Source: Acetobacteraceae bacterium (GTDB taxonomy: Bacteria > Pseudomonadota > Alphaproteobacteria > Zavarziniales > Zavarziniaceae). Taken from it: DNA of 64,000 nucleotides. Each line of letters starts with the position of its first letter. Positions within the stretch are counted from its first letter, which is position 1. The translations under genes were made by a program, and so were the position numbers. Below are positions 26,166 through 64,000 of the stretch, one piece after another. Under the pieces are notes generated by a model that saw only the letters and a list, made by a program, of their open reading frames with translations, had not been told where the DNA came from and did no database searches. The stretch covers positions 11,724 through 75,723 of the forward strand of contig CANCOY010000001.1 in NCBI GenBank assembly GCA_947379865.1. The letters run 5' to 3'.

Positions 26166-27287
26166 TCATACCCCTGCGCCAGGTGCCCGCGTCGGGGCAT
26201 CCGCATCCTTTTCGGTCAGCAGTCTGAGGAGGGGGGGGTTGATGAAGAGTTTTTCCCGGCCGGCCTTCATTTCCTGCAGAACGCCAATATCGCAAAGGCG
26301 CTTCAGATAGACCGAGGCCGACTGACGGCGGGCAATGCCGGCATCGACCAGGTCAGCGATACGGCAATATGGCTGCACGAACACCATTTCGACGAGCTCA
26401 CGGGAATAAATCCCCGCCGCATCCCGTCGGATGGTTTCGGCCGTCCCGTCGAGCAGGTGGCGGATGGCGGTGATCCTGGCGGTTGTCCAATGCGCGGTCT
26501 CGGTGATGGCGCTAAGCATGTAGAGGACCCATTCTTCCCAGGCGCCGTCGGTGGTGACTTTCAGTAGCAACCGATAATACTCCGCCTTGTGGCGGATGAT
26601 GTAGCGGCTGAGATAGAGCACCGGGATGCTAAGCAGGCCCTTTTCCACTAGAAACAACAGATTCAGCACACGGCCGGTGCGGCCATTGCCATCGGTGAAG
26701 GGATGGATCGCCTCGAACTGATAGTGCATGACGGCCATGCGGATCAGCGGGTCTACGTCTTCAGTTGCATGAATATAGCGCTCCCAGTCAGCGAGTTTGT
26801 CACGCAGAAGCATCTCACCCTCGGGCGGTGTGTAGATCACTGCCCCATCCACATCATTGACGAGGCGGGTGCCGGGTGTGGAACGAATATCAATGGTGCT
26901 GCCCTTGATGGTCTGGCAGATGCGCACCGCCGTCGCCGTCGTCAGGGGCCTCTGGTTCAGCAGTGCGAAGCCTTCATAAAGCGCAACGCGATAGCGCAGA
27001 GCCTCGCGTGTTGCCGGGTCGGCCTGGCTGTTTGCCTCGTTGGCAAAGCGGAACAGCCGGTCGCTGGTGGTGACGATGTTCTCGATCTCGGAACTGGCCT
27101 GGGCTTCCAGCAGTGGAATGCTGTTGATCAGCACCGCCTGATTGGGGATCAGGTCTCCCGCCACCTTGAGTTCTGCAAGCGCAGCCCGGGCCGTGATGCA
27201 GGCCTTGAGGACGGCCCGTGTCTCCACGTCTACCTGCGGCGGCAGGCCAGGCAGGGCATTATAGGGGCGGCTGGGGTCGAACGTCAT
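26166..27287 (-). CDS. fic: Fic-family protein (class II, N-terminal inhibitory helix; probable AMPylase)
   Basis: Met 39 (MTFDPSRPYNALPGLPP...) of ORF 26166..27401. Fic motif HPFTDGNGRTGR. SSEIEN matches the inhibitory (S/T)xxxE(G/N) motif. Confidence 0.85.
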   Translation of the reverse strand: MTFDPSRPYNALPGLPPQVDVETRAVLKACITARAALAELKVAGDLIPNQAVLINSIPLLEAQASSEIENIVTTSDRLFRFANEANSQADPATREALRYRVALYEGFALLNQRPLTTATAVRICQTIKGSTIDIRSTPGTRLVNDVDGAVIYTPPEGEMLLRDKLADWERYIHATEDVDPLIRMAVMHYQFEAIHPFTDGNGRTGRVLNLLFLVEKGLLSIPVLYLSRYIIRHKAEYYRLLLKVTTDGAWEEWVLYMLSAITETAHWTTARITAIRHLLDGTAETIRRDAAGIYSRELVEMVFVQPYCRIADLVDAGIARRQSASVYLKRLCDIGVLQEMKAGREKLFINPPLLRLLTEKDADAPTRAPGAGV

Positions 27288-27288
27288 A

Positions 27289-27491
27289 TGTCGATGAAAC
27301 CCGATAAAATCGACACGTTTCGCAAACGTGTCGATGCCATCGACATGTTTCCAGAACGTGTCGATATTTCCTGATTTTATCGACATGTTGGGTATGAGCA
27401 AGGGGGATTTGGGCCACCCCAGCAGCCTCGTTCATGTCGATGTGATCGACAGATTTGGCGAATATGTCGATTTTTTTGTGTTTTATCGACA
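27289..27491. promoter_or_regulatory. Phased array of ten ATCGACA/TGTCGAT heptamers (operator- or iteron-like) upstream of fic
   Basis: Copies start at 27289, 27309, 27329, 27339, 27359, 27379, 27435, 27445, 27465 and 27485, alternating in orientation. 27309-27335 is a palindrome with perfect 12-nt arms. Confidence 0.8.
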
Positions 27492-50226: not shown

Positions 50227-50302
50227 GGGGCCGTAGCTCAGTTGGTAGAGCGCCTCGTTCGCAATGAGGAGGTCAGCGGTTCGATTCCGCTCGGCTCCAC
50301 CA
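50227..50302 (+). tRNA. tRNA-Ala (anticodon CGC)
   Basis: Hand-folded cloverleaf. Acceptor GGGGCCG/CGGCTCC with the G3:U70 Ala identity pair, anticodon stem CCTCG/TGAGG, loop TTCGCAA, T-loop TTCGATT, encoded CCA. Confidence 0.9.
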
Positions 50303-51051: not shown

Positions 51052-52134
51052 TCAGGGCAGAACGATCTCCACCCGGCGGTTCTGGGGCTCGCGCACACCG
51101 TCAGCCGTCGGAACAAGGGGGGAGGCCTCGCCCTTGCCCACAACCGTGATCTGGTCGGCCGGCACGCCCAGCTGCACCAGGGCGTTTTTCACGGCGGCTC
51201 CGCGCTTCTCCGAGAGTTGCTGGTTATAGGCGGTGCTGCCCGAGCGGTCGGCATGGCCGGTCAGCTCAACCCGGGTGACGGCCAGCTGCCGGGCCGCCTT
51301 GGCCGCTTCACCGATGATGCTTGCCGCCTCGGCGGTTACGGCCGACGAATTCCAGTCGAAGAAGACAAGATAGGAGCGCGCCAGTTCCGGGGCAGGCGGG
51401 GCCGGTGGTGGCGGCGGGGCGGCAACCACCGGGATGGGGGCGGGCGGGGCGTCGCCAAACTTGTAGATCAGCGCGAGGAGAAGGGAATGATTGGACTGAT
51501 CATAACCCGAGTTGCCAAAAGCAGAATCAGAGAAAAATTTGTAGTAGTCGGCACTGTCTGCGCCTAAATAACGGTATTCTGCTGAAACGTCCCACTTATT
51601 TCCAACATCATATCGCAACCCTGCTATGGCCTGATAGGCAAAATTCAGTTTTTTGACATGGCCCGAATTTTGATAACGAAAATATACATCTACATTCGAG
51701 GCCCCAATACCAGCCCCAACATAGGGTGTAACTGATGTACCGGTCGGAATATCATAAAGTGCGCTCAGCATGGGTGTAACAGATGTCACATGACCGATGC
51801 CGGTGCTGGTACCAAAGCTGTAACTGATTTCCTGATCAAAGGAGTTGTACCGATAAACGACATCTGCCTGCAGACGGAATGAACCAAAGCTATAACCGGC
51901 AAGCGCACCGGCAGCAAAACCGGTCTTGTGCGTAAAATCATCCTGCGGATCGTAGAAGCCGCCCGTGCCATGATAGTTGCCGCTGGATCGTTCCGTAAAA
52001 TTCAGACCGCCAAGGCCACCGGCATACCATCCCGATGCTTCGTCGGAGTGTGCAACACGCGCACCCACGCCAAGTGTCATGACGATGGCAGAAGAAATGG
52101 CGGCAACCCGGGCAAGGCGTGCTGGATGAAGCAT
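51052..52134 (-). CDS. Outer-membrane beta-barrel protein with a Pro-rich linker and C-terminal OmpA/peptidoglycan-binding domain (paralogue 1)
   Basis: Met 10 (MLHPARLARVAAISSAIVMTLG...) preceded by GGGGAG. C-terminus TGHADRSGSTAYNQQLSEKRGAAV...NRRVEIVL. Confidence 0.85.
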   Translation of the reverse strand: MLHPARLARVAAISSAIVMTLGVGARVAHSDEASGWYAGGLGGLNFTERSSGNYHGTGGFYDPQDDFTHKTGFAAGALAGYSFGSFRLQADVVYRYNSFDQEISYSFGTSTGIGHVTSVTPMLSALYDIPTGTSVTPYVGAGIGASNVDVYFRYQNSGHVKKLNFAYQAIAGLRYDVGNKWDVSAEYRYLGADSADYYKFFSDSAFGNSGYDQSNHSLLLALIYKFGDAPPAPIPVVAAPPPPPAPPAPELARSYLVFFDWNSSAVTAEAASIIGEAAKAARQLAVTRVELTGHADRSGSTAYNQQLSEKRGAAVKNALVQLGVPADQITVVGKGEASPLVPTADGVREPQNRRVEIVLP

Positions 52135-52241
52135 CTTGAGCTCCCCTTCAAGACTGATCATTCTGTATAATGATTAAGTCTTTTCAGCGAGACAAGCAGC
52201 TTTGTACCTGTGGCCTTGCCAGGATTGGTGGCGTCACCAAC

Positions 52242-52291: not shown

Positions 52292-53347
52292 TCAGGGCAG
52301 GACGATTTCCACCCGGCGGTTCTGGGGTTCGCGCACACCGTCCGCCGTCGGCACAAGGGGGGAGGCCTCGCCCTTGCCCACAACCGTGATCTGGTCGACC
52401 GGTATGCCCAGCTGCACCAGGGCATTTTTCACGGCAGCGCCGCGCTTCTCCGAGAGTTGCTGGTTATAGGCGGTGCTGCCCGAACGGTCGGCATGGCCGG
52501 TCAGCTCAACCCGGGTGACGGCGAGTTGCTGAGCCGCCTTGGCCGCCTCGCCGATGATGCTTGCCGCCTCAAGGGTTACGGCCGACGAATTCCAGTCAAA
52601 GAAGACCAGATAGGAGCGGGCCAGTTCCGGCGCAGGCGGGGCCGGCGGCGGCGGCGGCGCGGCAGCCACCGGTGCGGGGGCCGCCGGGGCGTCGCCGAAC
52701 TTGTAGGTCAACCCAAAGAGGATTGTGTGATTGCCATAGCTATAGCCACGCGTTCCGTTCTGCGCGTTATCCAGATAGTTCTTCTGCTCGGTGGCGAAGT
52801 AGCGGTATTCCGCGCTGGCATCCCAATTGGCCGCAATGTCATAGCGCAGGCCCGCAATGGCCTGATAGGCATAGGCCCATCTGCCGACACGCTGGCGGGT
52901 GGCACTGGGATCATCGGTATAGCGATAGAGAACCTTGGCCATGCCAACGCCGGCACCCACATAGGGTGTCAGGCCTGCTCCAGCGGGGATGTCGTAGAGC
53001 ACGCTCGCCATGGGTGCCAGTGACGAGACACTGCCAATCTTGGTGTAAACGGTGCCGTCATAGGTCTCCACGTCAAAGCTGTTGCGCCGCTTGACCACGT
53101 CGACCTGCAGGCGGAAGGGCCCAAAGTCATAGCCCGCCAGCAGCCCGGCGGCAAAGCCGGCCTTGTGGGTGTAGTCATCCTGGCGATCGTTGATTGTACC
53201 ATGGGACGTGTCGGTGAGGTTCAGCCCACCCAGGGCACCCGCGTACCAGCCGGTGGCCTCCTCTGAACGGGCGCCACCGGCGCCCATTGCCATGACGAGG
53301 GCAGAAGAGATGGCCGCAAGCTGAACAAAGCGGAAGGGACGAGACAT
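52292..53347 (-). CDS. Outer-membrane beta-barrel / OmpA-domain protein (paralogue 2)
   Basis: Met 5 (MSRPFRFVQLAAISSALVMAMG...) preceded by GGAG. C-terminal 130 aa are nearly identical to paralogue 1. Confidence 0.85.
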   Translation of the reverse strand: MSRPFRFVQLAAISSALVMAMGAGGARSEEATGWYAGALGGLNLTDTSHGTINDRQDDYTHKAGFAAGLLAGYDFGPFRLQVDVVKRRNSFDVETYDGTVYTKIGSVSSLAPMASVLYDIPAGAGLTPYVGAGVGMAKVLYRYTDDPSATRQRVGRWAYAYQAIAGLRYDIAANWDASAEYRYFATEQKNYLDNAQNGTRGYSYGNHTILFGLTYKFGDAPAAPAPVAAAPPPPPAPPAPELARSYLVFFDWNSSAVTLEAASIIGEAAKAAQQLAVTRVELTGHADRSGSTAYNQQLSEKRGAAVKNALVQLGIPVDQITVVGKGEASPLVPTADGVREPQNRRVEIVLP

Positions 53348-53510
53348 GACAAACTCCATCCTGTAATACCTGTTCAGTAAGATGAATACCTCCCGTCAGT
53401 TGGGCAAGCGGCTTTGGCTTTGAGGCCGTGCAAACCGGGCCTTGTGTTGCCGGCGCGCCACGGCAGGCCCGGCGCGGATAGCGACCCTCGCTAAGCCGCC
53501 TTCACTCCGT

Positions 53511-54152
53511 TCAGAAACGATAGCCAAAGCCCATGCCAACCAGCGTGGGATCAAGGTCGAGGTCCGCCGTCACCGCGCCACCGTTCAGCTTGGCCGTGGT
53601 GTTGAGGAACACCTGCTTGATGTCGAGGTTCAGGAACCAGCGCTCGCTCACCGCCACATCAACGCCCGCCTGCAGGACGGTGCCAAAGTTGTTGTCGAGG
53701 CTGGCGCTCTGCAGCCCGCTTTTGGGGTTCACGTCATAAAACCAGGTGTAATTGATGCCGACTCCCATATAGGGGCTGATGCTGCCCTGGGGCAGGAAAT
53801 GGTACTGGATGGTCAGGGTGGGCGGCAGCAGGCGCGCCTCCACCACATCGGCCCCAAGCGCCGTCGAGGTCGCCATGTGCTGCGGCGAGGCGGCGATCAC
53901 CTCGAACGCGATGTTTGGCGTCAGGAAATAGCTGAGATCAACCTCAGGCGTATATTCCGTACTTACATCAAGTGAGCCGCCAAGGGGCGTCACACTGGCA
54001 TCCGCCTGGGGAATGACGCCCAGCGCACGGGCGCGCACAAGGATGCTGCCCTGCTCCTTGCCGACGCCCTCGGCCAGGGCGGGGCCTGACAGAGCAGGGG
54101 CGGCCAGGCCGGCAGCCGTGGCCATGCAAAGGGTGAGAATGCTCTTCTTCAT
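53511..54152 (-). CDS. ompW: OmpW family outer-membrane protein
   Basis: Met 59 (MKKSILTLCMATAAGLAAPALSGPALA...) of ORF 53511..54326. C-terminal ...VGMGFGYRF beta-signal. Confidence 0.85.
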   Translation of the reverse strand: MKKSILTLCMATAAGLAAPALSGPALAEGVGKEQGSILVRARALGVIPQADASVTPLGGSLDVSTEYTPEVDLSYFLTPNIAFEVIAASPQHMATSTALGADVVEARLLPPTLTIQYHFLPQGSISPYMGVGINYTWFYDVNPKSGLQSASLDNNFGTVLQAGVDVAVSERWFLNLDIKQVFLNTTAKLNGGAVTADLDLDPTLVGMGFGYRF

Positions 54153-54384
54153 GATATGCAGGCTCCGCTTGCCGGGGGCGCCCCAGACGACCGCCCGGGG
54201 GAGAGGTTGCACCTCCCATCCCGCAAAAAACTGCGCCAGATCAAGTTCGTTCCGTACCCACACCAACCCGGCCGGGGCCGTTGCCGGCGGGCAACACAGG
54301 CCACCCCGCCTGAGGCGAACGGTCATGAAAACGTTACTTGAAAAATATATGATGGCGGATGATTTGCGCAGGAACTAAAAAGAC

Positions 54385-57300
54385 ATGCCGCTTTTGGGCC
54401 TCAGTGCTGTTACACAAATGAATCGATTTTCACAGATCCTTTTTCTACTCCTGGCTTTGTGCTGCACCTTTATGCTGGCAGGCGGCGGCGCCCATGCAGC
54501 CGTTCTGGCGCCCGCCTCCGTTTCTGTCGGCACTGATCACAGCTGCGCACTGATGACGGATGGAACCGTCTTTTGCTGGGGCGACAGCGCGTTTGGGCAG
54601 GTGGGCGACGGCACGACTGACCGGCACCTGTCACCCGTGCAAATCTCAGGCCTGTCCGGGGTGAGTGCGGTTACGGCGGGCGTCCAGACGTCCTGCGCCC
54701 TGCTAAGCGACCAGACCATCACCTGCTGGGGCCGCAACGACCGCGCCCAGACCGGCAACCAGCGCCAGGACCAGGCCCTCTCCCCCGTCGCCACGCTGGA
54801 CATTACCGCGGCCACGGCCGTGTCCAGTGGCCTTGATCACACCTGCGCCCTGTTGTCGGATGCAACCGTCAAATGCTGGGGCAGCAATAGCTATGCCCAG
54901 CTCGGCAATGCCTCCAACGGCAGCTTCAGGCCTGTCAGCGTCAGCATCAGCGATCAGGATGGAGTCCGCACCCTGACGGGCGTGACGGCCATTGCCTCCG
55001 GATTCTATCATAGCTGTGCCCTGGTGCGTGGTGGAACGGTATGGTGCTGGGGCTGGAACCCCTTTGGACAGGTGGGCAACGGCACCACGAACAACGCCCA
55101 ATATGCGGTGGCGGTTTCGGGATTGTCAGGCGTCCTCGCCATCTCCGCTGGCGACTTCCACAACTGTGCCGTGCTGACGGTGGGCACCGTGAAATGCTGG
55201 GGCGCCAATTTCAACGGACAGCTTGGCTCGGTAACTTCACCTGATACAGCAAAAAGTCTCATTCCAGTCGCTGTCCCGAGCCTCTCCGGCGTAGCAGCCA
55301 TATCGGCGGGCGGGTACCAGACCTGCGCCCTGCTGACGGGCAAGACGGTTTCGTGCTGGGGCGACAATACGGTTGGGCAACTTGGCGACGGCACGACGGT
55401 TTCCAGCCTCGCGCCTGTTGCCGTCTCGGGCCTGTCAAATGTGGCACTGCTGTCGGTCAGTAACACCAGTGCCTGCGCCGTGCTGATGGATGGCACGCTG
55501 AAATGCTGGGGCGGCAACGAAAGCGGCCAGATCGGGGACGGCACGACCAAACAGCGAAGCCCTCCTGTCTACACCGTCTTTCCCCAGAGCATCAGCTGGA
55601 GCCAGACCCTGTCGGGCGGGGTGGGCGACAGTGTGGCGCTGACGGCCACAGCCTCGTCCGGCCTCAGCGTCACCTATGCGGGGACGGCGGACATCTGCAC
55701 CATCAGCGGTAGCACCCTGACCCTGGTGGCGACTGGCACCTGTATTGTTACGGCTGCGCAGGCCGGAACCTCGAATTATAGTGCAGCAGACAGCGTCAGC
55801 CTCAGCTTTGACGTCACCAAGGGCACCCAGACGATCAGCTGGAGCCAGAGCCTGTCTGGCGCCGTGGGGGGCACGGTTTCCCTCGGCGCCACGGCAACGT
55901 CGGGCCTTGCCCTAACCTATGCCAGCGATACAACGGGGGTCTGCACGGTGAGCGGCACGACCCTGAGCCTGGTCAGCGCTGGCACCTGTTCCATAACCGC
56001 CTCTCAGGCGGGGAGTGATTCCTATTTCGCCACCAGCCTTACGCGCAGCTTCACCGTTGCCAAGGGCAGCCAGAGCATTAGCTGGAGCCAGAGCCTGTCT
56101 GGCGCCGTAACGGGCTCCCTCAGCCTTGCGGCCTCCACCTCGTCTGGCCTTGCGGTCTCTTTTGCCGGGACAAGCGGGGTCTGTACAGCAAGCGGCAGCA
56201 CCCTCAGCCTTGTTGCCCAGGGTATTTGTACGGTTACAGTCACACAGGCGGGCAATGACAATTATCTGACGGCAACAAGCGTCCAGAAAACCTTCACGGT
56301 TACGGCCGCCATTGCAGTTTCGCCCTCCAGCCTGTCCTTTGCCAGCAGGCCGATCAACACCACCAGCAGTGCCCAGACCATAGCCGTCAGCAATGGCGGC
56401 GGCGCCAGTTTCCAGATCACGGGCATCACTTTAAGCGGCACTGATGCCGCGGCGTTCACCGCAAGCAATGGCTGCTCCACCGTAGCGGCAGGGGCCAGTT
56501 GCACCATCTCCCTTACCTTCAAACCCACCACCACGGGCGCGAAGGCGGCGACCCTTGCCATTGCCTCAACCGCCATCGGCACGCCCTCTGTCTCGGTCAG
56601 CCTGTCTGGCACTGGCAGTGCGGCCGCGCCGATCATCGGGTTATCTGCCAGCAGCTTTTCCTTTGGCAATCAGTTCGTGGGCACCGCAAGTGCTGGCCGC
56701 ACGCTGACCATCTCCAACGCCGGGTCGGCGTCGCTTGCCATCAGCAGCAGCGTGTTGTCGGGCACCAATGCGGCCGCCTTCACCAAGACGGGTACGTGCA
56801 CCAGCGTCGCCGCCGGCGCCTCTTGTGCGCTGACCCTGGCCTTTGCACCCAGCGCCACCGGTGCGGCCAGTGCGACACTCACCATCAATTCCAATGCGTC
56901 TGGCAGTGCCGCCACCACGGTTGCCCTCACGGGCGCGGGGATCGTCACGACGCTTTCGTCGCTGGCGGGTACCATCGATGGGCCGGGCTTTGCCAATGGC
57001 ACGGGCAGCGCTGCCCGCTTCAACATGCCAAGCGGGATCGCGCTTGATGCGTCTGGCAATCTCTATGTTACGGATACGGACAACAATCTGGTTCGCAAGG
57101 TGACCACCGCCGGCGTCGTCACCACCCTGGCGGGGCAGGTGCGCACGCCGGGGGCCACCAACGCCACCGGCACCTCTGCTTTGTTCAAGGCACCCACCGG
57201 CATTGCCATCACCAGCAGCAATCTGCTTGTGGCAGACAGCGGCAATCACATGATCCGCAAGCTGACCACCGCAGGCGTTGCCACCACCCTTGCCGGCACG

Positions 57301-58929
57301 GCGGGCAGCAGCGGCACCACCGATGCCACCGGTACGGCGGCCCGGTTCAACCTGCCCCAGGGCATTGCCGTGGACAGCGCCGGCATTGCCTTTGTTACCG
57401 ACACCGGCAACAGCACCATCCGCAAGATCACCACGGCGGGCGTGGTCACCACCTTTGCGGGCAGTGCCGGCCTGCAGGGCGGCACCAATGACACGGGCAG
57501 CCTTGCCCGCTTCGCCAGCCCCCTTGGCATCACCCGCGATGCCAGCAATGTGCTTTACGTGACCGACAGCACGGGCCAGACCCTGCGCAAGATCACCACC
57601 GCCGGCGTGGTAAGCACCCTTGCCGGCGCCCATGGCCTGTCGGGCAGCACGAACGACACGGGCGCACTGGCCCGCTTCTCTGCCCCCTCTGGCGCCGTTG
57701 TCGACAGCACGGGCGCCCTCTTTGTGACGGATGCCGCCAATGGCACGATCCGCAAGGTTACATCTGGCGGTGCCGTGACCACCTTTGCAGGGACGGCCGG
57801 GGCGCAGGGCTCGGTCAACGGCACGGGGGCGGGCGCCATGTTCTACAAGCCCGTGGGCCTTGCGCGCGACGCCAGCAATACACTGTATGTGGCCGACCCG
57901 GTGGCCCATGTCATCCGCAAGATCACCAGTACCGGCGCCACCACCACCCTGGCCGGTTATCCCGCCACTGTGGGGGCCGCCAATGATACGGGCAGCCTCG
58001 CCAGTTTCCGCGACCCCTCTGCCATGGTGGCCGATGGCGCGGGCAATCTCTTCATCGCCGACACCGGCAACCACAGCATCCGCAAGGTGACGCCAGCCGG
58101 CGTGGTGACAACCTTTGCTGGAACCGCCCTCATCTCTGGCGCGACCAATGGCACGGGTGCCGACGCACGCTTCAACGGCCCCAGGGGCCTGGCGATTGAT
58201 GGCAGCGGCACCCTCTATGTGGCGGATACTGGCAACCACGCCATCCGCATGATTACCTCTGCCGGGGTGGTGACAACCCTTGCGGGCAGCGCCGGTACAG
58301 TTGGATCAACCGATGCAACGGGGGCGCTCGCCCGTTTCCGCGGCCCTGCCGCACTCGCGGTGGACAGCGCGGGCAGCACGCTTTATGTGGCGGACACGGG
58401 CAATTACACGCTCCGCAAGATCACGGTTGCAACTGGCGCCGTCAGCACCCTGGCAGGCTCGGCCGGACTTGCGGGGACGACGGAGGGAACGGGCACCGCC
58501 GCCCGCTTTGGCCTGGTTCAGGGCCTCGGCCTTGATACGACGGGCACCACCCTTTACGTCGCAGATACCAGCAACAACACCATCCGCAAGGTCGTTATCA
58601 GCACCGGCCTTACCAGCACCTTTGCGGGCACGGCTGGCAGCCGCGGCACCCTTGCGGGCACCGGCACCGCCGCCCGCTTCTCCAGCCCGTCGGCGCTGAT
58701 GGTGGACAGCGCCAACACCCTCTATGTGGGGGACGCTGGCAGTTGCACCCTGCGCAAGATCACCTCCGCCGCCGTGGTAACAACCCCGGTGGGCTCCGCC
58801 GGCACCTGCCTGTTCGCCGCCGCCAATGCGCCCTCCACCATCAGCGTGCCCATGGGCCTTGCGAAGGTGGGGACAAGCCTGTTCGTGACCCTGGGCAATG
58901 GCGTGGCGAAGGTCGCAAACATCCCCTGA
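54385..58929 (+). CDS. Giant secreted multidomain protein: signal peptide, 7x RCC1-like blades, 3x Ig-like repeats, 2x ASH/choice-of-anchor-D-like domains, 12x NHL-like blades
   Basis: 1514 aa. Seven CWG...GQ(L/V)GDG units (about aa 45-397). Three 80-aa ISWSQ(S/T)LSG repeats (aa 400-640). Two domains of about 105 aa (aa 641-852). Twelve units of about 55 aa with ARF..P.G(I/L)A.D..G.L(Y/F)V(A/T)D..N..IRK(I/V)T. An alternative start at 54418 (MNRFSQILFLLLALCC...) gives a clean signal peptide. Confidence 0.85.
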   Translation: MPLLGLSAVTQMNRFSQILFLLLALCCTFMLAGGGAHAAVLAPASVSVGTDHSCALMTDGTVFCWGDSAFGQVGDGTTDRHLSPVQISGLSGVSAVTAGVQTSCALLSDQTITCWGRNDRAQTGNQRQDQALSPVATLDITAATAVSSGLDHTCALLSDATVKCWGSNSYAQLGNASNGSFRPVSVSISDQDGVRTLTGVTAIASGFYHSCALVRGGTVWCWGWNPFGQVGNGTTNNAQYAVAVSGLSGVLAISAGDFHNCAVLTVGTVKCWGANFNGQLGSVTSPDTAKSLIPVAVPSLSGVAAISAGGYQTCALLTGKTVSCWGDNTVGQLGDGTTVSSLAPVAVSGLSNVALLSVSNTSACAVLMDGTLKCWGGNESGQIGDGTTKQRSPPVYTVFPQSISWSQTLSGGVGDSVALTATASSGLSVTYAGTADICTISGSTLTLVATGTCIVTAAQAGTSNYSAADSVSLSFDVTKGTQTISWSQSLSGAVGGTVSLGATATSGLALTYASDTTGVCTVSGTTLSLVSAGTCSITASQAGSDSYFATSLTRSFTVAKGSQSISWSQSLSGAVTGSLSLAASTSSGLAVSFAGTSGVCTASGSTLSLVAQGICTVTVTQAGNDNYLTATSVQKTFTVTAAIAVSPSSLSFASRPINTTSSAQTIAVSNGGGASFQITGITLSGTDAAAFTASNGCSTVAAGASCTISLTFKPTTTGAKAATLAIASTAIGTPSVSVSLSGTGSAAAPIIGLSASSFSFGNQFVGTASAGRTLTISNAGSASLAISSSVLSGTNAAAFTKTGTCTSVAAGASCALTLAFAPSATGAASATLTINSNASGSAATTVALTGAGIVTTLSSLAGTIDGPGFANGTGSAARFNMPSGIALDASGNLYVTDTDNNLVRKVTTAGVVTTLAGQVRTPGATNATGTSALFKAPTGIAITSSNLLVADSGNHMIRKLTTAGVATTLAGTAGSSGTTDATGTAARFNLPQGIAVDSAGIAFVTDTGNSTIRKITTAGVVTTFAGSAGLQGGTNDTGSLARFASPLGITRDASNVLYVTDSTGQTLRKITTAGVVSTLAGAHGLSGSTNDTGALARFSAPSGAVVDSTGALFVTDAANGTIRKVTSGGAVTTFAGTAGAQGSVNGTGAGAMFYKPVGLARDASNTLYVADPVAHVIRKITSTGATTTLAGYPATVGAANDTGSLASFRDPSAMVADGAGNLFIADTGNHSIRKVTPAGVVTTFAGTALISGATNGTGADARFNGPRGLAIDGSGTLYVADTGNHAIRMITSAGVVTTLAGSAGTVGSTDATGALARFRGPAALAVDSAGSTLYVADTGNYTLRKITVATGAVSTLAGSAGLAGTTEGTGTAARFGLVQGLGLDTTGTTLYVADTSNNTIRKVVISTGLTSTFAGTAGSRGTLAGTGTAARFSSPSALMVDSANTLYVGDAGSCTLRKITSAAVVTTPVGSAGTCLFAAANAPSTISVPMGLAKVGTSLFVTLGNGVAKVANIP

Positions 58930-59098
58930 GATAAAGGGGATCTGGGGCACCACAACAAAGGGCAGGCCCCATAGGGGGCGGCGTCTCTTGGGGTGGGAAT
59001 AAAGGCCATTGGTCGACTGAGATTTATTCTTTGTTCAAAGGATTTCTCCTGTTTGTGCGCCTCACGGCACCTGTTCCACGCCGTGGAGAGGTTCGCGC

Positions 59099-59127
59099 TT
59101 GACAGTTTGCTCAGCCTTCCAATTATC
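59099..59127 (+). promoter_or_regulatory. Candidate sigma-70 promoter of the VHL-beta-like gene
   Basis: TTGACA (59099-59104), 17-nt spacer, ATTATC (59122-59127). GGAAGGGA Shine-Dalgarno sequence before the ATG at 59178. Confidence 0.35.
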
Positions 59128-59177
59128 TGGGATATGCATATTCAGGCTCGCGCGGGCGGGCTGGAAGGGACATCGAG

Positions 59178-59540
59178 ATGAAGAAGTTTCTGGTGCTGGG
59201 TTGCCTGCTGGCCGGCGGTGTGTTCCTGATGCCGCAGGCGGCAAAGGCCTTTTCCATTCCCGACGGTTGTTCGGCGCAGACCCTCGCCGGTCTGAAGTCG
59301 GGCAATAGCGAGGAGGCGGCACAGATTACCTTCCGGAACATGTATCCCCGCCCCGTCGAGATCTGGTGGATCAACTTTGAAGGCAAGCCGGAGCTTTTCC
59401 TGACGATCGAGAAGGACGGCAGCGAGAAGATCGAAACCTTCGTCGGTCACATCTGGAAGGTTGTGGATACGGCCGGCAAGAAGTGCGTCTTTTCCTATAG
59501 CGCCGACAAGGGCGACGAGAGCGTACTGATCATGGAATAG
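59178..59540 (+). CDS. Small secreted protein with a von Hippel-Lindau (pVHL) beta-domain-like fold
   Basis: 120 aa. Signal peptide MKKFLVLGCLLAGGVFLMPQAAKA. QITFRNMYPRPVEIWWINFEGKPELFLTIEKDGSEKIETFVGHIWKVVD aligns gaplessly to human pVHL residues 73-121 (sequence recalled from memory). Confidence 0.7.
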   Translation: MKKFLVLGCLLAGGVFLMPQAAKAFSIPDGCSAQTLAGLKSGNSEEAAQITFRNMYPRPVEIWWINFEGKPELFLTIEKDGSEKIETFVGHIWKVVDTAGKKCVFSYSADKGDESVLIME

Positions 59541-59629: not shown

Positions 59630-60097
59630 ATGTTGTTTTCCCCTCATCGGCCGCTGCCGGGCGGCACTGCACCCCACGGCCCCCGCCGCCTGATGCTGGG
59701 TCTGGCGGCTGGCCTGCTGCTGCTATCGGCCCCTGCCAGAGTGCACGCGCAGGAAGATGGCGCGGCCACCCCGGCAGAGCGGATCACCCCCTATATCCAG
59801 CTGGAGCCGTTGCAGGCCAGCGTGATCGAGAAGGGGATGTGGATCGCCACCCTTGTGGTCGCCGCCAGCCTCGACAGCCCCACGTTCGAGACAAGGCAAC
59901 TGGCGCGCTCCCGCATGGAGCGCCTCAATGAAGCCTATCTGTTTGCGCTGTCGAATTTCGCCCGCACCAGGGTCTCCCTCGACCGCCCGGTCAATGTCGC
60001 GGTGCTGGCCAGCACCCTTCAGCGCGTGACCGATGAGGTGCTGGGGCCAGGGATCGCCAAGGTGCTGATCGGCTTTGTTGCCGTCAACAAGGCCTAG
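59630..60097 (+). CDS. Exported hypothetical protein (RR-containing signal peptide; weak FliL-like resemblance)
   Basis: 155 aa. GPRRLMLGLAAGLLLLSAPARVHA signal. No firm domain call. Confidence 0.5.
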   Translation: MLFSPHRPLPGGTAPHGPRRLMLGLAAGLLLLSAPARVHAQEDGAATPAERITPYIQLEPLQASVIEKGMWIATLVVAASLDSPTFETRQLARSRMERLNEAYLFALSNFARTRVSLDRPVNVAVLASTLQRVTDEVLGPGIAKVLIGFVAVNKA

Positions 60098-60123
60098 GCG
60101 GCCCAATCCAACCATCGAAAATG

Positions 60124-60159
60124 AAAAAGGCCGGGGCTTTTGGCCCCGGCCTTGTTTCT
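60124..60159. terminator. Bidirectional intrinsic terminator between convergent genes
   Basis: Perfect 11-bp stem AAGGCCGGGGC (60127-60137) / GCCCCGGCCTT (60143-60153), flanked by an A-run and a T-run. Confidence 0.75.
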
Positions 60160-60197
60160 GCCCTCATGCCGCCCGGTGTGACCCCGCGGCAGGCCGA

Positions 60198-61208
60198 TTA
60201 CTCGGTCAGGGTCTGTGTCTTGGCACCTTCTTCGCCGAAGACATGGATGACGCCGTCCTTGGTCTGGATCAGGGCCGCCATGGCTGCACGATCGTCGCGC
60301 GGGGCATAGACGAAGGTCTTGCCGCCGTCCTTGCTGATCTGCACGGTGCCTTCAAGGCCGATCAGCACAACGCGGCCATCGCTGAGGATGCGGCCGGACT
60401 GGATCGACGAGGTCGACTTGTTGGCAACCTGGTTCCAGGTGGTGCCGCCATCGGCCGAGTGCCAGATGTTGCCGCGCATGCCGAAGACCAGCACGCTGCC
60501 ATCCTCGAGGCCAAGGCCGTTCCAGAACGAACCGGAATAGGGGGTCTGCAGGATTTCCCAGTTCTCGCCCTTGTCCTTGGAGCGGAACACATGGCCAGCT
60601 TCGCCCGCGATCAGCAGTTCGCCGCTCTTGGCCTTGAAGATGCCGTTCATGTGGAAATCGCTGTCGCCGATCTTCTTCTGCGTCCAGGTGGCACCACCAT
60701 CAGCCGTCGTCATGTAGAGGCTGTAGGCACCAACCGCGAAGCCATTCTGGGCATCGCTGAAGTAGACGGAGAAGAGGGGCTGTTCCAGCTCGGGCTGCTT
60801 GCTCTGCACGGTCCAGGTCTGGCCGGCATCGGCGCTGTGCAGGATGACGGCATCATGGCCAACGGCCCAGCCGTTCTTCGCGTCGGCAAAGGCAATCGAC
60901 GTGAGCGTGACGTCAACCGGCACGGTGGCCTGGGTCCAGCTGGCACCCTGGTCATCGGAATAGACGATGTGGCCCCATTCGCCGACCGCCACCAGGCGTT
61001 CGCCAGCGGTGGTCACATCGAGCAGAAGCGAGGTTGCCGCAAGGCGCGAGGGGAGGGAAGGTGCATCCTTCAGCTCGCTACCCTCGGTCACTGCCTTGGG
61101 CACGACGGGGGCGAGCGTGGACTGCGCGAAGGCGGGCGCACCGGCAAGGCCCAGGCACAGGCCGGCGGCAAGACCCAGGACGGAAGAGCGGCGAAGGAGA
61201 AGGGTCAT
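60198..61208 (-). CDS. Exported Ycf48/BNR-like seven-bladed beta-propeller protein
   Basis: 336 aa. Signal peptide. Repeated S.D.G.(S/T)W Asp-box motifs (SDDQGASWT, SADAGQTWT, TADGGATWT, SKDKGENWE, SADGGTTWN, SKDGGKTF). Confidence 0.8.
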   Translation of the reverse strand: MTLLLRRSSVLGLAAGLCLGLAGAPAFAQSTLAPVVPKAVTEGSELKDAPSLPSRLAATSLLLDVTTAGERLVAVGEWGHIVYSDDQGASWTQATVPVDVTLTSIAFADAKNGWAVGHDAVILHSADAGQTWTVQSKQPELEQPLFSVYFSDAQNGFAVGAYSLYMTTADGGATWTQKKIGDSDFHMNGIFKAKSGELLIAGEAGHVFRSKDKGENWEILQTPYSGSFWNGLGLEDGSVLVFGMRGNIWHSADGGTTWNQVANKSTSSIQSGRILSDGRVVLIGLEGTVQISKDGGKTFVYAPRDDRAAMAALIQTKDGVIHVFGEEGAKTQTLTE

Positions 61209-61696
61209 TCTGGACTCACGGTCAGGAGGCTACGGGTCAGGGCTGGCGAAAGCGCCGATGAAGGCCCCCCGATGGAAAGCGGGGCGCAGGGGAAACAGTT
61301 TCTTGAGGTCACGGGCGGGAACCGCAGGGAATGCGTCGTGCCACAGGCCCCGTTTGCCGGATCCCTCTGGCTGCGCCCAAGGCCGGATACCGGCCTGTGG
61401 GTGCGCAATGCACCACCATATGTCGTCCTCCCTCACCTCTGTCGCGCTCCGTGCGCCTGTCCTGCCACCCCCGGGGGGCACCGGACAAGCACCGGACCGT
61501 CTATTTTTGGCCGTCCAGCCTTTCCAGGCACACCCCGGATCGTTCGGGGGGGCCATGGCAAGGCGGCAGCACGGCAATACATTAGCCGCGATTGCCCGGC
61601 GGATAAAGCCTGCACCGGCAGGAACCCGCCAGACAGGCGTGCAGCGGACGATTTGTTCCCCTGCCGCCCGCCATGTCAAGCAGGACCTTCGCCGGT

Positions 61697-62620
61697 TCAG
61701 GTATTGAGGTACTCCAGCGGCAGGCCCGGACGCGGCCATTCGAAGGAAACAAGCTTGCCCGTGCCAGACAGCGTCGCATAGGCCGTGCGCAGATCCTTGC
61801 CGCCAAAGCAGATGTTGGTGGTCAGCGGATCGGGCAGCGGATAGTGCTTTACGTCCTTCCCATCTGGCGAAATGGCCGTGATGCCGCCATTACCGATGGT
61901 TGCGGCGCAAACATAGCCGCCGGCATCCACCGCCAGACTGTCGAGCAGGTTGAAGTCGGGCAGGCCCACCAGCAGCGTGCCGCCATGGGCAAGCAGGCCC
62001 GGCGCCGGCGCAATCACCCCCGGCGCGGCGATGTCGAAGGCCCAGACCCGGCCGGTGAAGGTTTCTGCGACATAGAGACGCTTGTGGTCCGGCGACAGGC
62101 CGATGCCATTGGGGCCTTCCAGCGGGAAGATGATTTCCTTGCACGAACTGCCATCGGCCTTGGCATAGAAGACGCCGGTGCGGTCGCGCTCGCGATCACG
62201 GCTCTTGCCATGGTCGGTGAAGTAAAAGCCGCCGTGCTTGTCGAACACGATGTCATTGGGGCCACGCAGGGCCACGTCGCCGGCCTTGGTATACAGGGTC
62301 TCGAATTTGCCCGTCTCAGGGTCGACCACCTGGATGGAGCCGCCCTTGTAATCATGGGGCTGGTGGCCGGGGAACAGCAGGCCCTCGTGGGTCGACCATT
62401 CAAAGCCGCCATTGTTGCAGACATAGATCTTGCCATTGGGGCCCATGGCAGCGCCGTTGGGGCCGCCGCCCAGCTTGGCGATGATCGTCTGCTTGCCGTC
62501 GGCCGCCACCCGGGTAAGGGTGCCACGCTCGATCTCCACCAGAATGATGGAGCCATCGGGCATGGCGATGGGGCCTTCCGGGAACCTGAGGCCAGAGGTG
62601 ATCTCATGGAACGCAGTCAT
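61697..62620 (-). CDS. SMP-30/gluconolactonase/LRE family protein (six-bladed propeller)
   Basis: Met 8 (MTAFHEITSGLRFPEGP) preceded by GGAGGA. PNGIGLSPD and NDIVFD motifs. Confidence 0.85.
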   Translation of the reverse strand: MTAFHEITSGLRFPEGPIAMPDGSIILVEIERGTLTRVAADGKQTIIAKLGGGPNGAAMGPNGKIYVCNNGGFEWSTHEGLLFPGHQPHDYKGGSIQVVDPETGKFETLYTKAGDVALRGPNDIVFDKHGGFYFTDHGKSRDRERDRTGVFYAKADGSSCKEIIFPLEGPNGIGLSPDHKRLYVAETFTGRVWAFDIAAPGVIAPAPGLLAHGGTLLVGLPDFNLLDSLAVDAGGYVCAATIGNGGITAISPDGKDVKHYPLPDPLTTNICFGGKDLRTAYATLSGTGKLVSFEWPRPGLPLEYLNT

Positions 62621-62690
62621 TTTCTTCCTCCCCTGCGGCATCGGCGTGCCGCTTGATTTGCTCTCTGCTTAAGCCGCCAGCCGCCGGTCT

Positions 62691-64000
62691 TCAAGAAGAG
62701 ACATGGCGCGGCACTTGCCCTGCCATGCCAAGCAGCCCCTCAAGCGCCTGGCCGGCCGCCAGCAGGGCCGCCTCGCCGCGTGGCCGCCCCACCAATTGCA
62801 GGCCCACGGGCAGGCCGGCGCGGGTCAGGCCACAGGGCAGCGCCAGCACCGGGCAGCCGGTCAACGTCACGGCATAAGTGATGCCCAGCCAATGCATATA
62901 GGTCTCGAATTCATGGCCCCCCAGGCGTTCAAGCGTGCGGGCATCGGCCGCAAAGGGCGGCGTGATGGCGGCAGGGCAGACCAGCAGGTCGTGGGTGGCA
63001 AAAAAGCGCCCCATGCGTCCCACCAGTTCGCCACGCAGGCGTTCGGCGCGGGCGAGCTGTGCCTGGCTCAGGGCCTGGCCCTTTTCGATGTTCCAGATGA
63101 TGTCGGGCTTCAGCCGCGCCCGCTCGCGCGCCAGCAATTCCCCCATGGCGGCGGCAAAATTGGCGGCGCGCAACGTGTGGAAGGCCTCGTGGGCATGGGC
63201 AAAGCTGGGCGCCGCATCGTCCACCGCAATGCCCAGGTCGCCCAGGCGCAGGGCAGCGGCCGCCGTGATGGCGGCAATTTCGGGATCAACCGGCCCCATG
63301 CCCAGATCGGGGCTGAAGGCCGCGCGCAGCGGCAGCGGCCCCGCCAGCCCGTCCACGAACGAGACGGCAGGCGGCGGCAGGGCAAGCGGATCGGCATCGT
63401 CGAGGCCGACCATGGCATCAAGGAACAGGGCCACGTCGCCCACGCTGCGGCCCATGGGCCCTTCGACAGAGAGGGTATCAAAGGGCAGCGCGCGCGGCGC
63501 ATAGGGCACGCGGCCGGGCGATGGCCTGAGGCCGACCACCCCACAAAAGGCCGCCGGCGTGCGACACGACCCGCCCATGTCGGAACCCTGGGCCAGCCAG
63601 ACCTGGCCCGACGCCAGCGCCGCCCCCGCCCCGCCCGAGGAGCCACCGGGCGTCAGCGCGGTGTTCCAGGGATTGCGGGTGATCCCGAAAACCTCGTTGA
63701 AGGTAACACCCCCGGCCCCCCATTCCGGCGTGTTCGACTTGGCCAGCACCGCCCCGCCGTTCGCCTCGATCCGCGCCACCGTGGCGTCGGAACGCTGGGG
63801 CACATGATTGGCAAACACCGGCGAGCCATAGGTCGTGCGCACGCCGGCCACGTCGTTCAGGTCCTTGATGGCCAGCGGCAGGCCCGCCAGCCAGCCAGGC
63901 CGGCCGGTGATCTCTGGCCCTGCCTTCATGGCGGCGCGGGCCTGGTCGCGGGCGCGCTCCGGGCACAGGGTTGGCAAGGCGTTGAGTTGGGGTTCCGTCT
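62691..64000 (-). CDS. Amidase-signature family amidase, 5' end beyond window
   Basis: GGSSGGAGAALASG signature and LAIKDL. The frame stays open upstream of the tracked TTG at 63977 up to the window edge (…TEPQLNALPTLCPE…). Confidence 0.85.
   Translation of the reverse strand, partial: TEPQLNALPTLCPERARDQARAAMKAGPEITGRPGWLAGLPLAIKDLNDVAGVRTTYGSPVFANHVPQRSDATVARIEANGGAVLAKSNTPEWGAGGVTFNEVFGITRNPWNTALTPGGSSGGAGAALASGQVWLAQGSDMGGSCRTPAAFCGVVGLRPSPGRVPYAPRALPFDTLSVEGPMGRSVGDVALFLDAMVGLDDADPLALPPPAVSFVDGLAGPLPLRAAFSPDLGMGPVDPEIAAITAAAALRLGDLGIAVDDAAPSFAHAHEAFHTLRAANFAAAMGELLARERARLKPDIIWNIEKGQALSQAQLARAERLRGELVGRMGRFFATHDLLVCPAAITPPFAADARTLERLGGHEFETYMHWLGITYAVTLTGCPVLALPCGLTRAGLPVGLQLVGRPRGEAALLAAGQALEGLLGMAGQVPRHVSS

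Follow-up and report, generated by a model that had tools for sequence, protein, structure and literature searches.

A Large Exported Protein of RCC1-Like and NHL Propellers Joined by Immunoglobulin-Like Domains in an Uncultured Freshwater Alphaproteobacterium

Introduction

What does a long, internally repetitive reading frame of 1514 codons encode, and is it a gene at all? The question is raised by positions 54385..58929 on the plus strand of a 64,000-nucleotide stretch of contig CANCOY010000001.1 (NCBI GenBank assembly GCA_947379865.1, Acetobacteraceae bacterium), which was analysed at its full length and is hereafter called the window; all coordinates refer to it unless a contig is named. 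An initial annotation, made from the letters of the sequence alone, had read the frame as a secreted protein in which three beta-propellers are combined with immunoglobulin (Ig)-like and ASH-like modules, and had left its function open. Here, we report that the gene is real and conserved, and that it codes for a large exported protein. The order of its parts, namely seven RCC1 blades, five Ig-like domains and twelve NHL blades, is assigned with high confidence from profile searches and structural models.

The Reading Frame Is a Conserved Gene

The frame opens with an ATG, has zero internal stops over its 1514 codons before the terminal stop, and is spanned along its whole length by high-scoring in-frame Pfam matches, whose E-values lie well outside what chance would give. 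Another NCBI assembly, GCA_947378885.1, calls an identical protein, and two further contigs carry it as well, called from a later start codon. Independent contigs tile the gene in four metagenome runs of lake or freshwater origin, which belong to three studies. Many of these pieces are identical to the window, and none of the contigs of the four runs shows a joint that would betray a deletion or duplication in the gene. An ortholog, P0124, is encoded on a 5.1-kb contig (L162) from another freshwater (lake) metagenome, which is collinear with window positions 54200-59182 at 79.4% nucleotide identity, and the indels between the two genes total only nine residues. The ratio of nonsynonymous to synonymous substitution rates (dN/dS, Nei-Gojobori) for this pair is 0.20 overall. 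By module it is 0.23 for RCC1, 0.19 for the Ig repeats, 0.18 for ASH, and about 0.16 (0.159) and 0.145 for NHL, so that the minimum lies in the NHL propellers, and amino-acid divergence is at its maximum in the Ig spacers (dN 0.228). The scarcity of indels and the dN/dS of 0.20 along the gene indicate a protein-coding gene under purifying selection over its whole length. The 1514-residue frame as first annotated is thus upheld by the lack of internal stops, the identical protein in other assemblies and the collinear ortholog; of the frameshifts or assembly collapse considered at that time, no sign was found, either as a stop within the frame or as a joint in the four runs.

The opposite view, that repetitive DNA of high guanine-cytosine (GC) content has produced the frame as an artefact of assembly or annotation, can point to the long spurious frames which such DNA yields, for example one of 532 amino acids in antisense at 56641-58239, to two assemblies with a form truncated at codon 272, and to short-read contigs that break repeatedly within the gene. 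We reject it as having practically no probability, since purifying selection acts over the full length, identical copies exist (three contigs carry the same protein) and joints are absent; the strong in-frame domain matches from end to end and the high confidence of the AlphaFold2 models also speak against it.

The antisense frame at 56641-58239 (minus strand) lies in the NHL-coding region; it is no gene and results from the high GC and the composition of the repeats. The truncated form occurs in assemblies ERZ27280181 and ERZ27263722, where the gene is identical up to the residues GTVKCW (window 55200, codon 272) and is followed by 86 nucleotides of foreign DNA with 44% GC. This tail is the same in both assemblies and ends both contigs (L166 10730-10815; L167 8999-9084), and the truncated variants encode products of 264 and 293 amino acids. 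No match to the tail was found in plasmids or in the other fetched loci; the junction may stem from an insertion element, from strain variation or from a break in the assembly graph. Depth reaches its minimum at 55.0-55.5 kb in all four runs examined. One run's contig also has an in-frame insertion polymorphism of six nucleotides (CGTCAG) at window 54866, in DNA for the loop between RCC1 blades 3 and 4, near a GTCAGC hexamer repeat at 54934-54957.

The repetitive DNA had also been put forward as a candidate for recombinational length variation. The unit lengths given for it, 165 bp and about 240 bp, are correct and correspond to periods of 55 and 81 amino acids. The units are, however, only 55-70% identical at the DNA level, exact direct repeats within the gene reach 29 nucleotides at most, and Tandem Repeats Finder reported no 165- or 243-nucleotide array within it. 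On account of this divergence and the blank array search, the idea of recombination-prone repeats was rejected; in addition, no joints occur in the four runs and the ortholog keeps the copy numbers 7/3/2/12 at 79% nucleotide identity, with Ig copy number differing only between distant relatives.

Domain Architecture

The N-terminal part of the protein, residues 40-399 (54502..55581, plus strand), contains seven blades of 50-57 amino acids with a motif that runs from SCAL through CWG to GQ(L/V)G, and each blade holds a pair of cysteines spaced ten residues apart in its SCAL and CWG elements. RCC1-like Pfam models (PF00415, PF13540 and PF25390) recognise this part strongly: WD40_RLD (RLD) at 4.5e-63 (214 bits against a cut-off of 150), RCC1_2 at 2.4e-59 in seven stretches (196 bits against 22) and RCC1 at 1.4e-40. 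Sequence matches in the PDB are UVR8 (4.6e-38, residues 129-389), HERC2 and RCC1. Taken together, the profile scores and the match to UVR8 suggest that this region folds as a seven-bladed RCC1-type propeller.

It is followed by three tandem repeats of 81 residues with ISWSQ/QTIxF motifs (residues 400-643; 55582..56313, plus strand). Their ISWSQ starts lie at residues 403, 484 and 565, a period of exactly 81 amino acids, and their mutual identity is 58%. No Pfam Ig model matches these repeats above its cut-off (Big_3_5 gives E-values of 0.056-0.31, at best 14.4 bits against 35.5), and no PDB sequence matches them at E <= 10. Other proteins that match the ISWSQ segment as a query do match the Pfam families PF22359 (Big-like) and PF16640 (Big_3_5). 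An AlphaFold2 model of residues 396-860 is all beta, with a mean predicted local distance difference test score (pLDDT) of 83 and values above 90 over the three repeats, each of which has about seven strands per 81 residues. A Foldseek search with this five-domain model returned Ig arrays at probability 1.0, with TM-scores that are low owing to domain orientation; among them were the hydin and CFAP ASH arrays, NUP210, SbsB, Sap (S-layer), cadherins, an RTX adhesin and GhpA. It is on this modelled fold and family relationship, and not on direct profile membership, that the ISWSQ repeats are called Ig-like.

The two domains that come next, at about residues 644-853 (56314..56943, plus strand), are assigned directly by profiles as ASH, HYDIN/VesB-like Ig or choice-of-anchor-D domains (models PF15780, PF22544 and NF012200). 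Pfam ASH matches at 5.9e-17 (62 bits against a cut-off of 27), HYDIN_VesB_CFA65-like_Ig at 6.9e-16 and Cep192_D4 at 7.5e-16, and the NCBIfam model choice_anch_D (NF012200) reaches 7.4e-37 in two stretches, with 126 bits against a cut-off of 45. PDB sequence matches of this part are FAP65, CFAP74 and VesC. The model supports a view of residues 396-860 as five predicted Ig-like beta-sandwiches in tandem.

The C-terminal part consists of NHL blades with a 55-residue period and a DxxGNxIRK motif, eleven of them clear and one, at the C-terminus, degenerate. Blades 1-6 make up a first propeller (about residues 866-1195; 56980..57969) and blades 7-12 a second (residues 1196-1514; 57970..58926), both on the plus strand. 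Pfam NHL (PF01436) matches at 1.2e-54 (180 bits against a cut-off of 20) and TEN_NHL (PF25021) at 4.1e-36 (125 bits against 27.1), and E-values of PDB sequence matches reach 1e-24. The degenerate blade 12, which closes the protein with GNGVAKVANIP, is modelled as beta-strands by AlphaFold2, and the pair Cys1454-Cys1475 sits in blades 11/12. The model of residues 855-1514, built on 15 sequences, has a mean pLDDT of 92.1 and a predicted template modelling score (pTM) of 0.77, and its sole internal dip in confidence falls at the boundary of blades 6 and 7. In Foldseek, NHLRC2 (6gc1) fits half of the NHL model over 347 columns with a root-mean-square deviation of 2.1 Å (TMq 0.45), SOQ1 (7djj) matches with TMt 0.75, and the paired propellers of LRP6 cover the whole model, in alignments of about 650 columns. 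Because single propellers fit half of the model and tandem pairs fit all of it, the twelve blades are read as two six-bladed propellers.

These results agree with nearly everything that the initial annotation had proposed for the architecture. Its seven RCC1 blades recur as seven CWG motifs and as the seven stretches of RCC1_2, its three repeats of about 80 residues have the exact 81-residue period, its two modules of about 105 residues are the two stretches of NF012200, and its pair of six-bladed NHL propellers is recovered by segmental AlphaFold2 models and Foldseek. The overall plan of three propellers with Ig-like and ASH-like modules between them was confirmed, in the same order, by the Pfam and NCBIfam profiles, with AlphaFold2 and Foldseek supporting its Ig-like and NHL parts.

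Signal Peptide, Cysteines and Composition

Residues 1-38 (54385..54498, plus strand) form a signal peptide, recognised by hydrophobicity and with its cleavage site placed by inspection. It has an n-region MNRFSQ and a hydrophobic core ILFLLLALCCTFML, followed by a site of the signal peptidase I type, with cleavage between GGGAHA and A. Residues 14-36 are the sole segment hydrophobic enough for a membrane helix (19-residue Kyte-Doolittle mean above 1.9). When the frame of the ortholog on L162 is extended upstream of its annotated start, it reads MTSHRPQWTSFLLLLFLCVVMPAGGGAHA with cleavage before T, and this signal, which ends in FLLLLFLCVVMPAGGGAHA before the same T, is equivalent to that of the window protein yet divergent in sequence, so the Sec-type signal appears conserved in kind while its sequence diverges. 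The ortholog's signal peptide aligns from M12 of the window protein onward, which makes the second ATG, at 54418, the probable functional start. A match to the sigma-70 promoter consensus (54325..54353, plus strand; consensus only, 9 of 12 positions) lies upstream in the divergent intergenic region shared with ompW, which is conserved in L162.

Other routes and anchors were also considered. A lipoprotein was rejected by inspection, as leucine directly precedes cysteine in both orthologs and there is no lipobox, and so was Tat export, as the twin-arginine motif is absent. The Kyte-Doolittle scan of the protein revealed no C-terminal hydrophobic segment. Pfam and NCBIfam scans gave no match to the sorting anchors PEP-CTERM, LPXTG, the type IX secretion system (T9SS) C-terminal domain or GlyGly-CTERM, and none at E <= 0.1 to an autotransporter barrel, RTX repeats or a toxin domain. 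The earlier observation that an N-terminal Sec signal is the only targeting feature therefore holds in both the profile and the hydrophobicity scans.

Of the 28 cysteines, two are in the signal peptide and the remaining 26 form 13 intramodule pairs: seven in the RCC1 blades, three in the ISWSQ repeats, two in the ASH domains and one near the C-terminus, in the final NHL blades. When 15 relatives are aligned, most cysteine columns of the ISWSQ and ASH domains prove invariant or nearly so. The extracellular RCC1-like propeller of CRINKLY4 likewise has regularly spaced cysteine pairs on neighbouring strands (PMC4617170). The paired cysteines, the signal peptide and this parallel point to an oxidising, extracytoplasmic location, in which the pairs would form disulfides.

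Alanine, threonine, glycine and serine make up 55% of the residues of the protein, and its isoelectric point is about 8.2. Glutamate is extremely scarce, with only two among the 1514 residues (0.1%), at positions 379 and 1367, in loops outside the repeated blade positions, and the 11 histidines are confined to the GNH blade motif and the RCC1 blades. Aspartate accounts for 3.8%, and glutamate for 0.4% in the ortholog and 0.9-1.7% in more distant relatives.

Relatives and Distribution of the Modules

An exhaustive HMMER search with residues 1-1200 against 1.84 billion cluster representatives from public genomes and metagenomes matched 313,417 proteins at E <= 1e-3, of which 88,952 also passed E <= 1e-30. 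These matches include many giant proteins of 2,000-7,500 residues with 10-40 matched stretches, and the matches in genomes come from Actinomycetota, Verrucomicrobiota, Myxococcota, Bacteroidota, Acidobacteriota, Planctomycetota, Pseudomonadota and some archaea. With more than 313,000 matches across bacterial phyla, these modules are everyday components of bacterial proteins, and their presence is no hallmark of eukaryotes. The initial annotation had taken RCC1 and NHL for predominantly eukaryote-type modules, a view that has to be abandoned, given also that the RCC1/BLIP-II group has been described as a pangenomic, major and continuously amplified propeller lineage (PMC9218822). Extracellular giant proteins of the RCC1 type have been reported too (PMC9218822; bioRxiv 10.1101/2023.11.21.568195).

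The full order of RCC1x7, Ig, ASHx2 and NHLx12 is rare, an uncommon combination of ordinary parts. Scans of genome and metagenome collections yielded no full-length relative, only short module-level segments of up to about 59% identity, and outside its own species the full order is present in 0 of 160 loci from the two collection scans. A 581-residue query spanning a junction retrieved only repeat-array proteins that cover at most 75% of it. Among 270 proteins, again outside the own species, only two share the full order. One is the ortholog P0124 (RCC1x7-IgXx3-ASHx2-NHL, copy numbers 7/3/2/12), which was found only by the exhaustive HMMER search, and the other is P0157, a protein of 1857 residues and 46% identity with the order RCC1x7-IgXx6-ASHx2-NHL, in which six Ig repeats were detected. 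P0179 (47% identity) has RCC1x7, six Ig repeats and NHL with ASH undetected, and P0226 has a different head without RCC1, followed by one Ig domain, ASHx2 and NHLx12. The number of Ig spacers in these collinear relatives thus varies between 1, 3 and at least 6, and all four share the C-terminal ending C.F…AP..I…G…F…GNGV..(V/I).N(I/V/M)P with the window protein. Among the best 150 HMMER matches, about 23 span the ASH-to-NHL junction collinearly and about 8 the RCC1-to-Ig junction. The protein is best seen, in sequence terms, as a putative fusion of two recurrent supermodules. That this combination is not a described family is right insofar as no full-length curated model exists, but at least two further proteins (P0124 and P0157) have their modules in this order, and its halves recur widely.

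Each part of the protein has better-known counterparts. Choice-of-anchor-D domains take their name from their co-occurrence with alternative C-terminal anchors (PEP-CTERM, LPXTG or T9SS). Surface proteins with such Ig repeats (NF012200) resemble the window protein in their tandem ASH domains above the cut-off, their Sec signal, their modular build and a composition rich in threonine, serine, alanine and glycine, whereas the window protein lacks a C-terminal anchor and ends in a propeller blade. Members of the RCC1/BLIP-II group, such as Streptomyces BLIP-II and CRINKLY4, also have seven RCC1-type repeats and lie outside the cytoplasm, and those known to be secreted act as binders; the cysteine pair in each window blade resembles that of CRINKLY4. 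Blades of the BLIP-II/crinkly type are about 39-40 residues long, in contrast to the classic RCC1 blades of 50-57 residues in the window protein, whose propeller is moreover fused to other modules. The NHL propellers of NHLRC2, SOQ1, teneurin-like proteins and the PknD sensor share the fold of the C-terminal part, with its long blades of 55 residues and their DxxGNxIRK motif. The window protein differs from them in having two propellers in direct tandem at the C-terminus of a secreted bacterial protein, and in lacking a thioredoxin, kinase or YD-shell partner domain. Finally, giant multi-propeller proteins of Verrucomicrobiota and other phyla (L041, 7615 residues; L050, 5651; P0144, 5692) alternate the same RCC1, NHL and ASH modules; they are three to five times larger and carry many propellers, and compared with them the window protein is a minimal two-headed version.

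Possible Function and Alternative Explanations

We lean, with moderate confidence, towards a Sec-exported, non-catalytic and two-headed binding or adhesin-like protein that is predicted to be stabilised by disulfides. Cleavage of the signal peptide would leave a mature protein of about 1476 residues, arranged like beads on a string. Its first head would be the N-terminal seven-bladed RCC1-like propeller and its second a rigid pair of six-bladed NHL propellers; the five tandem Ig-like beta-sandwiches, three of the ISWSQ and two of the ASH/choice-of-anchor-D kind, would serve as a stalk or spacer between them. Ligands, for example a protein or glycan of particles, of other cells or of the organism's own envelope, may be held on the propeller faces, and the protein might serve in adhesion or in the capture of ligands, be it in the periplasm, in the medium or at the cell surface. 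Among the relatives of its Ig/ASH part are proteins named, for instance, choice-of-anchor D protein and adhesin. With only two glutamates and 11 histidines, and no catalytic or toxin domain, a non-enzymatic reading is favoured; the lack of catalysis, the binding function and the role of the stalk are each deduced in this way from composition and architecture.

Several points weigh against this interpretation. "Adhesin or binding protein" is the default reading for such an architecture, there is no ligand, partner or secretion system with which the protein can be linked, and none of the RNA runs searched holds the gene. The neighbouring OmpW, the two OmpA proteins and the VHL-like protein are not known partners, and the VHL-like gene is preceded by a sigma-70-like promoter match of its own (10 of 12 positions, 59099-59126). 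The Pfam SGL model (lactonase-like, PF08450) also exceeds its own cut-off, with 60.2 bits against 26.3 (3e-16). This last match would speak for an exported enzyme, in which one or both NHL propellers would be of the SMP-30/gluconolactonase, Vgb-lyase or PAL type and the other modules would target it to a substrate. Weaker Vgb_lyase and Phytase-like matches and NCBIfam ScyF at 1.1e-36 may be counted in its favour, as may a true SGL protein encoded nearby (61697-62641, minus strand). Yet the SGL, Vgb and NHL models overlap on one repeat region, where NHL is far stronger, and ScyF (126.8 bits against 350), Vgb_lyase (35.2 against 50) and Phytase-like (19.1 against 27.6) all stay below their cut-offs. 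The best structural matches, moreover, are the non-catalytic NHL propellers of NHLRC2, SOQ1 and teneurin-like proteins. Sites of the SGL or Vgb type require acidic or histidine metal ligands at the propeller centre. The near absence of glutamate, both of the only two residues lying in loops outside the blade motif, makes a metal centre of the SMP-30 type improbable, and we consider an enzyme quite unlikely. Less probable still is a mimic or effector directed at eukaryotes, whose RCC1 head would act on Ran or other GTPases of protists in the manner of Legionella LegG1/PpgA, possibly together with the VHL-beta-like neighbour. The RCC1 domain does match eukaryotic UVR8, HERC2 and RCC1 at 1e-16 to 5e-38, a VHL-beta-domain gene lies 248 nucleotides downstream, and Legionella does have RCC1 effectors (PMC7157520). 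However, the Sec signal and the paired cysteines suggest an oxidising destination outside the cytoplasm and not the cytosol of a host, type III, IV and VI secretion genes were not seen among the genes inspected, propellers of the CWG type abound in free-living bacteria of many phyla, and a promoter-like site precedes the VHL gene itself.

The remaining alternative arises from the relatives. Two related integrative elements from hosts of lower GC (L163, 1-13118; L164, 1-13923) carry collinear relatives of 46-47% identity, and such a protein might be cargo of a mobile element, that is, a surface, receptor-binding or exclusion factor which spreads horizontally and serves, for example, in element attachment or phage shielding. 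P0157 has genes for an integrase, a resolvase and an AlpA-like protein beside it, P0179 those for a resolvase, a primase-helicase and a Prim-Pol, and the two elements share backbone genes. The next gene on L164 (9770-10789) encodes a secreted protein with collagen repeats and with matches to phage tail-fibre families, and both RCC1 and NHL propellers are found in phage proteins. In the window itself, a tRNA-Ala(CGC) gene (50227-50302, plus strand) is found 4 kb upstream, where a region of slightly lower GC has its edge, and local GC dips occur. Against this stand the absence of any integrase, recombinase or replication gene adjoining the window gene, whose neighbours are OmpW, OmpA and housekeeping genes, its GC content of 0.61-0.68, like the rest of the window, and the conservation of its flanks in L162. 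A genomic island at this locus was rejected, as a search of the window revealed no repeat of the tRNA-Ala 3' end of at least 12 nucleotides and the gene has no integrase close by. Without adjoining mobile-element genes, mobile cargo is an unlikely, minor explanation here and rather a lead for the family. It is a similarly doubtful conjecture that the window protein and P0124, P0157, P0179 and P0226 form a horizontally mobile, two-headed recognition family with a conserved (ASH)-double-NHL tail that closes in GNGV..V.N.P, exchangeable heads and a variable Ig stalk, some members being carried on integrase/primase elements. The task of such proteins would not be adhesion in general but a specific recognition between cells, between cell and particle, or in relation to phages, and they would cross the outer membrane by means of a signal in the folded propeller instead of a linear tag.

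Neighbouring Genes and Host

The gene was said to sit between outer-membrane protein genes and a VHL-beta-like gene, and inspection of its neighbours confirmed this. Upstream, in divergent orientation on the minus strand, are two OmpA/Omp25-like genes and one for OmpW (51052-52161, 52292-53359 and 53511-54326). The tandem OmpA/Omp25-like paralogs are 67% identical, and GC falls to 0.47 at 51501-52000, inside the first of them. The VHL-beta-like gene (59178-59540, plus strand; 120 amino acids), 248 nucleotides downstream, matches the Pfam VHL beta-domain at 1.8e-12. Its product has a signal peptide of its own, MKKFLVLGCLLAGGVFLMPQAAKA, cleaved before F, and its GC is locally low (0.56); the sequence that precedes its start codon is conserved in L162 as far as that short contig extends. 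Further downstream, on the minus strand, lies a cluster (60198-61208, 61230-61739, 61697-62641 and 62691-63977) with genes for two further beta-propeller proteins, of which one is BNR/Ycf48-like and the other a true SMP-30/gluconolactonase that matches SGL at 2.2e-48, and for an amidase. The plus-strand reading frames at 60075-61781 and 61673-62656 are wrong-strand artefacts. Elsewhere in the window, 26166-27401 (minus strand) encodes a Fic/SoFic-like protein adenylyltransferase (Fic_N, Fic, SoFic-like_C) in a region of low GC (0.593 at 26-28 kb), and several large reading frames without any Pfam or NCBIfam match are probably wrong-frame products of high-GC DNA.

The nearest named relatives of the ArgG protein encoded in the window belong to Zavarzinia, Dongiaceae, Rhodospirillaceae and Oleomonas (84-87% identity). 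The contig also encodes IalB, OmpA/Omp25-like proteins and OmpW, and its sequence is present in lake-water metagenomes. These relatives, outer-membrane proteins and lake metagenomes together point to an uncultured, diderm freshwater alphaproteobacterium near Rhodospirillales as the host.

Conclusions

The protein belongs to a known class, that of large modular secreted propeller/Ig proteins, and as such it neither opens a long-standing question nor reveals a new mechanism. It does correct the idea that RCC1 and NHL propellers in bacteria amount to eukaryote mimicry, and its relatives on mobile elements hint at horizontal exchange of such proteins. If the favoured interpretation, a two-headed extracytoplasmic binding protein, is true, this gene would be an example of how free-living bacteria shuffle a few propeller and Ig modules into large binding proteins outside the cytoplasm. 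Compact and well predicted (pLDDT 83-92), it represents modules that occur in more than 300,000 mostly uncharacterised proteins, and it could be a tractable model for finding their ligands.

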